DNA of 60,359 nucleotides from Chloroflexota bacterium (GTDB lineage: Bacteria > Chloroflexota > Limnocylindria > Limnocylindrales > CSP1-4). The notes under the pieces are model-generated. The model saw only the letters and a list, made by a program, of their open reading frames with translations, had not been told where the DNA came from and made no database searches. Location: positions 1,259 through 61,617 of the forward strand of contig PLLE01000012.1 of assembly GCA_003141245.1 (NCBI GenBank). The letters run 5' to 3'. Within the stretch, counting starts at the first letter, position 1. The number at the start of each line of letters is the position of its first letter. This document shows positions 56,538 to 59,234 of this stretch, piece after piece. Position numbers and translations under genes: made by a program.

Positions 56538-59234
56538 ATGCGAGAAGCGACCCGCCGCCCCAGCCCGAGCGCTCCGCCCGCTCTTCCGAGCCCGTCCGCG
56601 AGCGCGTCGATGACGCCGCCGGCCGTCGTTCCCGGACCCCTGCCGGTCCAGGCACCTGCTCCGTCCGTGACTGGCCTCAAACCCGCCGCCAACGAGAAAC
56701 CGGTCTGGAACCGCAAGGCCGGCCGGGTCGACAGCCGCCCCGACTCGAAGGCGCCGCGCGACACGGTCACGCCGATCGACGACTCGCCCGAAGAGCGGCT
56801 CATCACGACGCAGAGCCCGCAGCGCCCGCTCTCGACGCCGACCATCAAGCTCCAGATCGACGGCCGCGAGGTCATCGGCATTGAGGGCCAGACGATCCTG
56901 GAGGTCTGCCGCGACAACGGCATCGACGTCCCGACGCTCTGCTACGAGCCCAAGCTGCCCGGCTTCGGGGCGTGCCGCATGTGCGTCGTCGAGATCGCGG
57001 GTGAGGACCGCCCGGCGATCTCGTGCGCCCGCGCCGCCGCCACGGGAATGGTCGTCCAGACCCAGACCGAGGAGGTGCGCCGGCTGCGGCGCACGAACCT
57101 CGAGCTGATCTTCAGCGACCACAACGCCTACTGCCTGCCGCCCTGCCAGAACAAGTGCCCGAGCCACATCGACATCCCCGGCTTCCTCAAAGCCAACGCC
57201 GAGGGCAAATTCCGCGAGTCGGCGCGAATCTTCAAGCGTACGATTCCGTTCCCCTCCATCCTGGGGCGTGTCTGCCCGGCGCCGTGCGAGGAGCACTGCC
57301 GCCGCGACGAGGTGGACGAGGCGATCGCCATCCGCGACAGCCACCGCTACGCCGGCGACATCGTCCTGGCGGCCCAGGAAGACGGCATCGAGCCGCCGCT
57401 GCCCTTCGAGGCGCAGCCCGCGACGGGCAAGCGCGTGGCCATCGTCGGCTCCGGCCCCGCCGGCATGGCCGCGGCCTACTACCTGCTCCTGTCCGGCCAC
57501 CACGTGACCGTCTTCGAGCGCGACGCCGCCCCCGGCGGGATGCTCCGCTACGGCATCCCGGAGTACCGCCTGCCCAAGGCCGAGGTGCTCGAGCCCGAAT
57601 ACGAGGCCGTCTGGCGGCTGGGCGCGAAGCTGGAGCTCAACCAGGAGCTGGGCCGCGACTTCAGCCTCGACGACCTGCGCGACCGGGGCTTCGACGCCAC
57701 GATCGTCGCGACCGGCTGCTACGAGACGAACAAGATCGGCGTCCCCAACGACACCGCCGAGGGCGTCATCGAAGGCCTGGACTACCTGCGCATCGCCACG
57801 TTGGGCCTGCCCTACCCGGGCCACGCCGGCAGCCGGGTCGTCGTCATCGGCGGCGGCTTCACCGCCATGGACTGCACGCGCACCTCGATCCGCCAGGGGG
57901 CGAGGGAAGTCACCCTCGTCTACCGCCGTGACATGAAGGACATGCCCGCGGCCAGCGAGACTCACGAGGCCATGGAAGAGGGCGCGAAGATGATCTTCCA
58001 GGCAGGCCCGACACGCGTCCTGGTCGACGCCCGCAACCGTGTCGCCGGCGTCGAGTTCATTCGCATGCGCCCCGGCGCTCCGGACGCCTCCGGCCGGCGC
58101 CGCCCCGAGCCGGCGCCCGGAACCGAATTCGTCGTCGAATGCGATCGCGTCCTGCTCGCCATCGGCCAGGGCCCCGACCTGTCGTGGATCGGCCCCGGCA
58201 ACGAGGACGTCGAGGCCGTCAAGTGGAAGCTCAAGGCCGACGCGGTGACCTTCGAGACCGGCCGGCCCGGCGTCTTCGGCGCCGGCGACGTCCGCATCGG
58301 CGCCGCGACCGTGGTCCAGGCGATCGCCGAGGGCCGCCGCTGCGCCTACGCCGCGGACGCCTACCTGCGCGGCATGGACCTCTCCGAGCTGCGATCCCGC
58401 GAGCCGCTGGTCGAATGGGACCCTGGCTTCCTCTCGATCGTCCCCTATACGGACGAGGTCAAGGAGCCTCGCCATCGCCTGCAGGCGATGCCGGCGGAGG
58501 AACGCACCAGGAGCTACGTCGAGTACGAGATCCCCTACACCCAATCCGAGGTGATGGCCGAGTCGAGCCGCTGCCTGCAATGCACCTGCGAGGCGATCGG
58601 CTACTGCGACCTGCGCAACCTGGGGATCGAGTACGGAACCACGCTCAAGACCCTGGAGCCGGGCCATGACGAGGGTGCCGGCTTCCGCAGCGTCACCGAG
58701 AACCGCTTCACCGGCACCAATCACGACTACGTCCGCGACGACAGCCACGCCTTCATCCTGCGCGAGCCGTCGCGCTGCATCGACTGCGGGCGTTGCGCCG
58801 CGGTCTGCGCCGACGTCGTCGGCGCGGCCTGCTACGACTTCATGCGCATCGGCTTCGACACGCTGGTGACGACGCCGCTCGACATGAGCCTCAACGACAC
58901 GCCGTGCGTCTCCTGCGGCCGCTGCGCCGAGACGTGCCCGACGGGCGCGCTCATGCTCAAGCCGCGCGTCCTGGAGAAGTACGACGTCGACGAGAGCCGC
59001 TGCATCCTGTGCGGCATCTGCGTGGACGCGTGCCCGTACGACGCGCTCCGCGGCGGCCCGGACAACGAGCTCGCCCACACCGACCGGTCCGAGCCGATGA
59101 TCGATCTCATCGGCCTGGCGGCGATGGCCGGCGAAACCGAAGTCACCTACATAGCGCGCGAGCGCGACTGGATGGCGCACGCCGTGGCCGACGGTCGACT
59201 CGCGGCCGTCGCCACCCCCGGCGACGGAAAGTGA
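56538..59234 (+). CDS. Multidomain Fe-S flavoprotein: NuoG-type [2Fe-2S] + GltD/NfnB-type FAD/NAD(P)H domain + 2x[4Fe-4S] + NuoI C-terminal half
   Basis: VPTLC...GACRMCVVE...SC; SDHNAYC; PPCQNKCP...GRVCPAPCEEHC; VAIVGSGPAG; GMLRYGIP; IGGGFTAMD...VYRR; RCIDCGRC/CVSCGRCAETCP; final YDVDESRCILCGICVDACPYDAL..GPDNELA. Start uncertain (56538 or later). Confidence 0.85.
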   Translation: MREATRRPSPSAPPALPSPSASASMTPPAVVPGPLPVQAPAPSVTGLKPAANEKPVWNRKAGRVDSRPDSKAPRDTVTPIDDSPEERLITTQSPQRPLSTPTIKLQIDGREVIGIEGQTILEVCRDNGIDVPTLCYEPKLPGFGACRMCVVEIAGEDRPAISCARAAATGMVVQTQTEEVRRLRRTNLELIFSDHNAYCLPPCQNKCPSHIDIPGFLKANAEGKFRESARIFKRTIPFPSILGRVCPAPCEEHCRRDEVDEAIAIRDSHRYAGDIVLAAQEDGIEPPLPFEAQPATGKRVAIVGSGPAGMAAAYYLLLSGHHVTVFERDAAPGGMLRYGIPEYRLPKAEVLEPEYEAVWRLGAKLELNQELGRDFSLDDLRDRGFDATIVATGCYETNKIGVPNDTAEGVIEGLDYLRIATLGLPYPGHAGSRVVVIGGGFTAMDCTRTSIRQGAREVTLVYRRDMKDMPAASETHEAMEEGAKMIFQAGPTRVLVDARNRVAGVEFIRMRPGAPDASGRRRPEPAPGTEFVVECDRVLLAIGQGPDLSWIGPGNEDVEAVKWKLKADAVTFETGRPGVFGAGDVRIGAATVVQAIAEGRRCAYAADAYLRGMDLSELRSREPLVEWDPGFLSIVPYTDEVKEPRHRLQAMPAEERTRSYVEYEIPYTQSEVMAESSRCLQCTCEAIGYCDLRNLGIEYGTTLKTLEPGHDEGAGFRSVTENRFTGTNHDYVRDDSHAFILREPSRCIDCGRCAAVCADVVGAACYDFMRIGFDTLVTTPLDMSLNDTPCVSCGRCAETCPTGALMLKPRVLEKYDVDESRCILCGICVDACPYDALRGGPDNELAHTDRSEPMIDLIGLAAMAGETEVTYIARERDWMAHAVADGRLAAVATPGDGK

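Follow-up and report, generated by a model that had tools for sequence, protein, structure and literature searches.

Complex I is commonly seen as an invariant core that is combined with a few input modules. How, then, should a complex I (nuo) operon be understood in which the place of nuoG is occupied by a gene joining the N-terminal part of NuoG to a GltD-like flavoprotein? This question is raised by a stretch of 60,359 nucleotides (nt; the window, meaning the whole stretch analysed) on the plus strand of contig C7 of a Chloroflexota genome (2.54 Mb, 47 contigs, 92% complete, 69% G+C). The gene in question, at 56538–59234, encodes a subunit referred to here as the hybrid. A first-pass annotation had proposed that it replaces NuoG, and that a module known from soluble Stn/Nfn enzymes had been grafted onto complex I. 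Both proposals agree with the results below, and the locus has further features that the annotation did not mention: a split NuoI, a trimmed NuoF of the Bfu type, the loss of cluster ligands in NuoE, and a changed N3 ligand. Judged from sequence comparison, these genes probably encode a non-bifurcating, proton-pumping complex I in which the halves of NuoI pair in trans. Electrons would enter at two flavins, from NADH at flavin mononucleotide (FMN) and from NADPH at flavin adenine dinucleotide (FAD), and would leave through NuoI and cluster N2. We assign this reading a probability of roughly 0.6.

The hybrid subunit and the two halves of NuoI

The open reading frame (ORF) of the hybrid runs uninterrupted from ATG to stop (898 residues). 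Its ATG lies 9 nt past the nuoF stop codon and is preceded by GAGG at 8–11 nt upstream. A Pfam scan finds the NuoG-type [2Fe-2S] domain Fer2_4 (residues 102–177, E = 3e-18), with ligands C135, C146, C149 and C163, followed by Fer4_20, the Fe-S (iron–sulfur) domain of GltD/DPD proteins (residues 199–277, 2e-18), and by the FAD/NAD(P)H fold Pyr_redox_2 (residues 299–599, 2e-24). The latter two occur together with both Rossmann motifs, GSGPAG (residues 304–309) and GGGFTAMDCTRTSIRQGA (residues 438–455, with VYRR at 461–464), the combination by which a GltD/NfnL-type domain is recognised. Further motifs are HNAYCLPPCQNKCP (residues 195–208), GRVCPAPCEEHCRR (243–256) and RCLQCTCEAIGYC (678–690). 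The model NADH-G_4Fe-4S_3 matches only residues 184–200, with positions 1–17 of its 40 and below cut-off, which fits a His-cluster motif cut by an insertion.

Pfam, PDB alignment and motifs therefore agree with the order of parts described in the first-pass annotation, namely a NuoG-type [2Fe-2S] domain, H-x3-C, a complete GltD-like Fe-S/FAD/NAD(P)H unit with the second Rossmann motif GGGFTAMD...VYRR, and RCLQCTC-x5-C, with the His-cluster motif interrupted by the insertion. The reported lack of a molybdopterin-like C-domain is likewise borne out: the Pfam scan found no molybdopterin family and no C-domain like those of formate dehydrogenase (FDH) or NuoG, and the protein stops 66 residues past its last Cys motif. 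One element of the description must be amended. Two [4Fe-4S] motifs do follow RCLQCTC-x5-C as in StnC/NfnA, but the region holds three CxxCxxCxxxC motifs, of which A and B lie within residues 747–800 (747–757 and 790–800) and C at 822–832. Fer4_Nqo3 matches residues 740–805 (below cut-off), and 4Fe-4S dicluster families match 786–837.

Residues from about 103 to 832 are colinear with the large subunits of solved enzymes, 9bov_A (2e-163), StnC of Sporomusa (8oh5_C, 4e-143) and NfnA (9n5u_A, 1e-136), a likeness of sequence far beyond chance. We take 9bov to be the enzyme of Caldicellulosiruptor saccharolyticus, judging from its subunit lengths. These end-to-end alignments show a protein of the StnC/NfnA type, as had been suggested, with a predicted NuoG-N [2Fe-2S] domain, a GltD-like unit for FAD and NAD(P)H that interrupts the site of the His-ligated cluster, and a ferredoxin-type domain with 2x[4Fe-4S]. 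By the same comparisons, motifs A and B correspond to the ferredoxin domain of StnC/NfnA, while motif C and the tail correspond to the C-terminal half of NuoI, which is shown to stand where those enzymes have an FDH-like C-domain.

These parts are conserved. In an alignment of 20 Chloroflexota hybrids (locus L039, whose hybrid gene is frameshifted, was left out), all 20 keep, at ~45% identity, every Fe-S cysteine including each GltD cluster Cys, the FAD motif, GGGFT..DC.RTS.R.GA, YRR and the NuoI motifs. His269 stands at the position of StnC Lys170, the Lys ligand of the FAD-proximal [4Fe-4S] cluster. The same His is found in 20/20 aligned hybrids and in four fetched actinobacterial-type sequences; this replacement is a signature of the hybrid family and may tune the cluster.

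The other half of NuoI is located at the beginning of the ORF that would pass for nuoE. When the genome was searched with TIGR01971, the NCBIfam model of NuoI (121 positions), two complementary half-matches were obtained: positions 1–67 at 54377–54580, in the first residues of the "nuoE" ORF, and positions 71–116 at 58965–59102, at the end of the hybrid. No match in the genome exceeds the cut-off of this model, the two halves included, and no intact nuoI, with both CxxCxxCxxxCP motifs on one polypeptide, was found. The 271-residue NuoE fusion shows the same division in comparison with PDB chains, its residues 9–77 matching the N-halves of TYKY/NuoI and residues 117–256 matching NuoE/HydC/NfnC. 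Moreover, a canonical 152-residue NuoI from another Chloroflexota genome aligns through its residues 3–79 with the NuoE fusion (51% identity, 7e-22) and through its residues 36–123 with hybrid residues 772–852 (2e-13). NuoI is divided in the loop that joins the two CxxCxxCxxxCP motifs, and the partner of hybrid motif C is CETCFQCAQACP, at residues 56–67 of the NuoE fusion. The two halves recur, again without an intact NuoI, in 5/5 further genomes from four families. The comparisons thus show a NuoE–NuoF–hybrid module placed inside nuoI, with the two predicted NuoI halves borne by its two end subunits, and the idea of a module grafted onto complex I has stronger support than the annotation could give it.

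Two other interpretations of these joints were rejected. In the first, the hybrid would have a self-contained NuoI-like domain made of motifs B and C, as the BLAST alignment with canonical NuoI spans both. Motifs A and B, however, are colinear with the StnC/NfnA ferredoxin domain, TIGR01971 is strong for motif C and the tail by themselves (2e-10, against 1e-5 for the A/B region), and the N-half on NuoE would be partnerless. Nor is the NuoE fusion a pseudogene joint: its linker residues are invariant in 17 sequences, and the fusion is present in 43/43 sampled genomes of the nearest three families (f1, 23/23; f2, 4/4; f3, 16/16). These families, all Limnocylindria, belong to a survey sample of 401 genomes of the phylum that were grouped in families f1, f2, f3 and so on.

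The NuoE and NuoF parts of the module have also been reduced. The N-terminal helical domain of NuoE is kept in all 21 aligned fusion sequences, and the second Cys pair of its [2Fe-2S] site is missing from every one (here the thioredoxin-like part covers 54920–55159), so that the four ligand cysteines are nowhere found together. A C-x-C-x2-C persists in 13/21, and the thioredoxin-like domain is wholly missing in 8/21, including two f1 genomes (loci L031, L032, L042–L047). In complex I naming, this cluster is N1a.

NuoF is closest to the B subunits of Bfu enzymes (9bov_B, 2e-101; HydB, 1e-100; 8oh5_B, 5e-97) and matches the NuoF of complex I more weakly (M. smegmatis, 2e-78; Thermus, 7e-70). It covers only the central residues 107–528 of the 584-residue 9bov_B, without the N-terminal thioredoxin-like and C-terminal ferredoxin-binding domains. 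An alignment of 20 NuoF sequences (locus L040 was left out, as its nuoF is in pieces; the hybrid C-terminus of that locus reads out of frame) retains RGRGGAGFP, KW, GEET, PP(Y/F)P and MGSG. The NADH contacts that passages of PMC11829005 name for NfnB are kept, with Phe159 and Gly156 in a GLRGRGGAGFP loop, Lys164, Glu274, Phe294, and the MGSG loop as TGAIMGSGG. As a separate observation, the N-terminal region of NuoF at 55229–55258 shows in-frame length differences in RNA-library contigs of related strains (3 bases out, 12 in).

The operon, its genome and related loci

The gene order is A-B-C-D-H-[NuoI-N::NuoE]-F-[hybrid::NuoI-C]-J-K-L-M-N, with no nuoI gene between H and J (Table 1). All membrane subunits (A, H, J, K, L, M and N) are encoded together. 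The Q module is intact: NuoB has its N2 cysteines, NuoC is present, and NuoD has equivalents of the quinone-site His and Tyr, which we take to be those numbered His38 and Tyr87. There is one nuoH, nuoL/M/N are found on the abutting contig C35, and the other NuoF/NuoG-N loci of the genome, on contigs C21 and C14, are both hydrogenases; consequently, this operon is the organism's only complex I. The hybrid stands in its nuoG position, and no canonical NuoG was found in the genome, where the only two PF10588 matches are both in hydrogenase loci. Contigs from RNA libraries (four wetland runs, 93–99% alike) cover 30/30 bins of 52990–59900 and span the nuoH/NuoI-N, nuoF/hybrid and hybrid/nuoJ junctions.

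Relatives of the hybrid are found in the three Limnocylindria families and in other Chloroflexota families. Among the matches listed, at least 120 homologues of 854–975 residues are 77–98% identical over at least 97% of the query, and come from metagenome-assembled genomes (MAGs) of Candidatus Limnocylindrales or Chloroflexota. Matches to named public genomes fall in 599 stretches, 526 of which code for a relative; the best 80 are all Chloroflexota/Limnocylindrales MAGs from fens, soils and lakes. Within the survey sample, 94/401 genomes have a match at E 1e-120 or better, a few of these being longer forms with an FDH domain (e.g., G168, G212). The tallies take in six genomes flagged as unpublished (G145, G173, G038, G272, G227 and G344), none of which is among the 94. 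The hybrid is present in 23/23 genomes of f1, 4/4 of f2, 15/16 of f3, 2/2 of f4, 5/5 of f9, 27/28 of f24, 11/11 of f28 and 1/2 of f19, and in five more genomes. One of the families f1–f3 has genomes of only 1.1–1.4 Mb, while those of f24 and f28 measure 4–7 Mb. The order B-C-D-H-[I_N::E]-F-hybrid-J is found in 14/14 fetched f1–f3 loci; in most f3 loci, 1.4–5 kb of other sequence lies between the hybrid and nuoJ (L036–L038, L040, L041). Hybrid genes at present carry the label "formate dehydrogenase major subunit" or "FAD-dependent oxidoreductase", so annotation pipelines would count nuoG and nuoI as absent from these genomes.

The family f4 provides a natural complementation test. A short operon, nuoB-(nuoD)-[I_N::E']-nuoF-hybrid, is found among unrelated genes in both f4 genomes and at four loci of other families. 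In both f4 genomes, the single nuoB lies inside the short operon B-D-[I_N::E']-F-hybrid and the single nuoH is on another contig. The second f4 locus reads A-C-H-J-K-L-M-N, in which J comes straight after H and nothing matches B, D, I, E, F or the hybrid. The two loci sum to one complex I, and the join between H and J is where nuoI is missing.

The same build, including the NuoI-C tail, is also found in MAG proteins labelled Thermoleophilia or Actinobacteria, which were compared as proteins only. In an unrooted FastTree phylogeny (70 rows, 684 columns, tail excluded, partial sampling; the 40 FDH-domain forms and the actinobacterial-type P0137 were picked from 150 listed representatives), one branch with an SH-like support of 100 separates 30 NuoI-fused forms from the 40 FDH-domain forms, a split compatible with a single origin of the NuoI-fused forms. 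Six further proteins of about 810–850 residues (P0136, P0155, P0183, P0201, P0208, P0226) are of the GltD-inserted NuoG-N/FDH type and all end in ...DHCARL. This ending looks like that of gene calls which stopped at the TGA selenocysteine codon of a real formate dehydrogenase; NADPH-linked selenocysteine FDHs may thus be under-called.

Several neighbouring or related genes deserve mention. The methyltransferase gene upstream of the operon has a PF02636 counterpart in an f4 genome, immediately downstream of the short hybrid operon (locus L042, 9075–10163), and members of the NDUFAF7/MidA family adjoin 11-subunit complex I operons in Actinomarina, according to part of a preprint (bioRxiv 10.1101/2021.02.01.429150). 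NuoH (448 residues) has a segment at residues about 330–389 that lacks a counterpart in f3 relatives, where tblastn matches break into 55–329 and 390–447, which suggests a lineage-specific insertion. On contig C14 (locus L049, 4608–9011), a 1051-residue NuoF–GltD fusion, a 280-residue NuoG-N-like protein and a homologue of the [NiFe]-hydrogenase small subunit lie at the contig end. This is a second, different union of GltD and Nuo-type parts in the same genome, and perhaps an NADP-linked group 3 hydrogenase. On contig C21 (locus L048, 1808–5718, minus strand) there is a HydABC-type [FeFe] hydrogenase, with HydC of 161 residues and an intact thioredoxin-like 2Fe-2S domain, HydB of 550 and HydA of 587 residues, which is unexpected in a lineage assumed to be aerobic.

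Table 1. Positions in the window of the complex I genes, of the parts of the NuoE fusion and the hybrid, and of an upstream gene
Feature	Position	Strand	Evidence
NDUFAF7/MidA-like methyltransferase (PF02636), upstream of operon	47652..49088	+	2e-54
nuoA	49967..50326	+	PF00507, 4e-32
nuoB (longest ORF; true start probably past nuoA stop)	50206..51051	+	PF01058; N2 ligand motifs CC...C...CP
nuoC	51055..51612	+	PF00329, 6e-36
nuoD (longest ORF; homologous part from near residue 180)	51360..52979	+	Match to 2fug_4, 7e-92
nuoH, sole copy found in genome	52990..54336	+	Pfam, genome search
NuoI N-terminal half (residues 1–81 of the 271-residue protein), including CETCFQCAQACP	54344..54586	+	TIGR01971 positions 1–67; TYKY/NuoI chains; canonical NuoI BLAST
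Linker (Y92, R95, A100 invariant), NuoE N-terminal helical domain, thioredoxin-like remnant without second Cys pair	54587..55159	+	Pfam, PDB, alignments
nuoF of Bfu type, 457 residues, without extra N-/C-terminal domains, N3 motif CGKTIPC	55156..56529	+	PDB comparison, alignment
Hybrid: Pro/Ala/Ser-rich N-terminal extension (residues 1–100)	56538..56837	+	Partly conserved from about residue 52; RNA-library contigs cover extension
Hybrid: NuoG-type [2Fe-2S] domain (residues 102–177)	56841..57068	+	Pfam, PDB alignment, motifs
Hybrid: H-x3-C, then GltD/NfnL-like unit (two 4Fe-4S sites, FAD and NAD(P)H folds, His269)	57120..58334	+	Pfam, alignments
Hybrid: RCLQCTC-x5-C, rest of His-cluster and GltD cluster ligands	58569..58607	+	PDB and hybrid alignments
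Hybrid: ferredoxin-like 2x[4Fe-4S] domain (motifs A, B), as in StnC/NfnA	58776..58946	+	Pfam, PDB alignment
Hybrid: NuoI C-terminal half (residues 809–898), including CILCGICVDACP and NuoI tail	58962..59234	+	TIGR01971 positions 71–116, BLAST
nuoJ	59275..59823	+	PF00499
nuoK	59820..60131	+	PF00420
nuoL 5' part, runs off contig, continues in contig C35 with nuoM, nuoN	60139..60359	+	Window end ...TLWTWIP = C35 start TLWTWIP...

A putative electron path and its alternatives

How electrons might move through such a complex can be considered against the solved enzymes. Passages of PMC10482914 describe, for StnC, a path C7...C3 with a branch C2, C1. For NfnA, part of PMC11829005 gives the path FAD-A7-A6-A3-A2-A1 to B1-FMN, with a dead-end branch A2-A4-A5 that is functional only in true formate dehydrogenases. 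Every ligand set of this cluster scheme is conserved in the hybrid, and in alignment A2 (70 rows) the NuoI-C motif comes after motif B, in the columns where Stn/Nfn have the FDH-type cluster motif. Two entries and one exit are proposed on these grounds. NuoF, with its FMN, would oxidise NADH, and the GltD unit, with its FAD, would oxidise NADPH; both routes would meet on a shared Fe-S chain. The two halves of NuoI would pair in trans, so that both NuoI clusters are formed again and the module is anchored to NuoB/D/H. Electrons could then leave from the motif A cluster through the motif B cluster and the rebuilt NuoI to N2 and quinone, driving proton pumping. The exit would thus run along the dead-end branch of Stn/Nfn, formed by the second ferredoxin cluster and then the FDH-type cluster position, here taken by NuoI. 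Such a geometry seems plausible, with NuoI in place of the FDH-like domain and NuoI-N fused to the N-domain of NuoE.

The use of NADPH at the GltD unit is suggested by YRR and GGGFT..DC.RTS.R.GA, the first of which is common to 3/3 solved NADPH-oxidising homologues; its arginines presumably bind the NADPH 2'-phosphate. Electron bifurcation appears unlikely. The flavobicluster (B1-FMN-C1) outlined in parts of PMC11829005 includes the [2Fe-2S] cluster of the small subunit, and the reading as non-bifurcating follows from the absence here of both that cluster and the extra domains of the B subunit.

A number of points weigh against the two-entry complex I. We infer the pairing of the NuoI halves and the wiring of the clusters from homology and motif order, and a preference for NADPH over NADH from the YRR motif and homology. 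The NAD(P)H site can apparently be lost while the protein persists: in two of four fetched actinobacterial-type homologues (P0137, and P0276, which is labelled Thermoleophilia) the motif has degenerated to GDGFAA..., without YRR, in an otherwise whole architecture, and a sub-lineage of these homologues may have lost the site. The PntB transhydrogenase is present in the genome, so a respiratory outlet for NADPH is not strictly needed. NuoF has diverged at two sites. The second Cys of its N3/B1 motif is Thr or Ala in 12/20 aligned sequences (Thr367 here; residues 364–371, window 56245–56268), and the conserved flavin-adjacent acidic motif, ADEGDPG, reads AYQADPA here and is changed (D to Y or M) in 20/20. 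Finally, RNA-library contigs can contain DNA and are weak evidence that the operon is transcribed.

The two-entry reading and the first three of its rivals differ only in the active site that would be used. The rival that survives best, though unlikely, is a complex I that oxidises NADH only, entry being at NuoF/FMN and the GltD-like unit an inherited scaffold that oxidises no nucleotide. The persistence of whole proteins with a degenerate second Rossmann motif would be understandable on this view, as would the presence of PntB and the conserved NADH/FMN contacts of NuoF. A mere scaffold, however, is hard to square with the 20/20 retention of the FAD motif, GGGFT..DC.RTS.R.GA, YRR, the GltD cluster cysteines and the His at the Lys170 position in Chloroflexota hybrids that are only ~45% identical, even in genomes of 1.1–1.4 Mb.

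Somewhat less probable again is the converse, a complex specific for NADPH in which NuoF and NuoE are structural relics, the FMN branch is impaired, and the FAD of the GltD unit is the sole working entry. The two changes in NuoF would be expected in such a relic, together with the loss of NuoE cluster ligands in 21/21 sequences and of the thioredoxin domain in 8/21. Yet NuoF retains RGRGGAGFP, KW, GEET, PP(Y/F)P and MGSG, through which solved NfnB contacts NADH and FMN. Moreover, a Glu stands three residues past the fourth N3 Cys in 12/12 NuoF sequences that lack the second Cys, and a Gly in 8/8 that keep it (Glu413 here; residues 409–413, window 56380–56394). This perfect covariation may reflect a Cys-to-Glu ligand swap rather than decay. 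The lack of an NDH-2 match would also speak against an NADPH-specific complex I, though here the search for NDH2_C (PF22366) in the 92%-complete genome had a weak control, which matched only 3/14 genomes, and hence is no evidence that NDH-2 is absent.

It is improbable that the complex works chiefly in reverse or sideways, as a quinol:NADP+ reductase driven by the proton-motive force or as an internal NADPH:NAD+ transhydrogenase using the shared Fe-S chain. Complex I is reversible in principle, and the flavins of Stn/Nfn are wired together through the same clusters, but the relatives come from samples labelled lake, soil and fen and are assumed to be aerobic heterotrophs, nothing found points to a need for reverse flow, and PntB already connects both nucleotide pools. 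Least credible of all is a soluble Stn-like transhydrogenase whose genes lie by chance in the nuo operon, or an artefact of assembly or frameshifting. Solved soluble Stn/Nfn enzymes are the nearest matches of the three subunits, but NuoI halves are fused to module subunits in a genome without an intact NuoI, the FDH-like domain that mediates the Stn/Nfn tetramer (according to passages of PMC10482914) is missing, the sole nuoB and nuoD matches of f4 sit in the hybrid operon while its membrane locus is A-C-H-J-K-L-M-N, and dozens of independent assemblies, with contigs of 2–3 Mb among them, show the same gene order, as do RNA-library contigs.

The preferred reading, a complex I with NADH and NADPH entries, can tentatively be taken further. 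Its N module might join the Q module in a geometry unlike that of any solved complex I, with the exit through the second ferredoxin cluster instead of the His-ligated cluster, which would face the GltD unit, and with the NuoI halves serving as covalent tethers. If both flavins were active, the enzyme could be a proton-pumping NADH and NADPH dehydrogenase that acts as an NADPH:NAD+ transhydrogenase when the quinone pool is reduced, and the operon could be a record of a soluble module welded onto an 11-subunit complex I.

Were the two-entry reading true, direct energy conservation from NADPH would be open to the abundant Limnocylindria of lakes, soils and peat, and possibly to Thermoleophilia. 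It would also give a role to the Fe-S branch that is a "dead end" in Stn/Nfn enzymes, and would supply the modular-evolution model of complex I with a living intermediate in which the order of gene events is clear.

Comparison with known complexes

A search of the full-text literature found no description of a split NuoI or of a GltD-hybrid NuoG in complex I. Alternative input modules are known already. The novelty here lies in a genuine complex I core whose GltD-bearing N module, derived from Bfu enzymes, is inserted into NuoI and splits it; a second type of N module, of the Stn/Nfn family, thus divides a core Fe-S subunit.

The likeness to canonical 14-subunit complex I (Thermus thermophilus, 2fug/4hea; E. 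coli) is extensive. One operon encodes subunits A, B, C, D, H, J, K, L, M and N, the ligands of N2 and the residues of the Q site are in place, and the FMN/NADH motifs of NuoF and the [2Fe-2S] and His-cluster motifs of NuoG-N are kept. In contrast to the canonical enzyme, where NuoI is a single polypeptide, its halves are found here on two. E-F-G lies between D and H in the canonical operon and between H and J in this one. The molybdopterin-like domain of canonical NuoG is missing and a GltD insertion and a second ferredoxin cluster are added, the second Cys pair of NuoE is lost, and N3 appears to have three Cys and a covarying Glu. In addition, NuoF is nearer to the Bfu B subunits than to Nqo1 of Thermus.

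The same set of three subunits is found in StnABC of Sporomusa ovata (8oh5/8oh9) and in the Bfu NfnABC enzymes (9bov, 9n5u), and these entries are among the best PDB matches of all three subunits. Their large subunits share with the hybrid the [2Fe-2S] domain, H-x3-C, the GltD/NfnL unit with its FAD and NADPH folds, CxxCxC-x5-C, 2x[4Fe-4S] and YRR. There are also differences. Where Stn/Nfn have an FDH-like C-domain, the hybrid has half of NuoI; the FAD-proximal cluster, ligated by Lys in Stn/Nfn (in passages of PMC10482914 and PMC11829005), has His at this position in the hybrids; the B subunit of Stn/Nfn has N- and C-terminal domains that NuoF lacks here; and the small subunit has [2Fe-2S] ligands in Stn/Nfn, whereas NuoE has lost them and bears half of NuoI instead. 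Lastly, Stn/Nfn are soluble, while the hybrid module is encoded inside a nuo operon.

The principle of a conserved membrane and quinone core with varied input modules is shared with 11-subunit enzymes, with Fpo and its FpoF, and with Mbx-like operons. In the last of these, a gltD-related flavoprotein takes the place of NuoI, as part of Degli Esposti 2015 (PMC4758237) reports. Unlike the Mbx-like operons, however, the present locus keeps NuoI in split form and retains a whole module of the E-F-G' type, and its core is a bona fide Nuo core with a quinone site rather than one of the Mbx/Mrp type.

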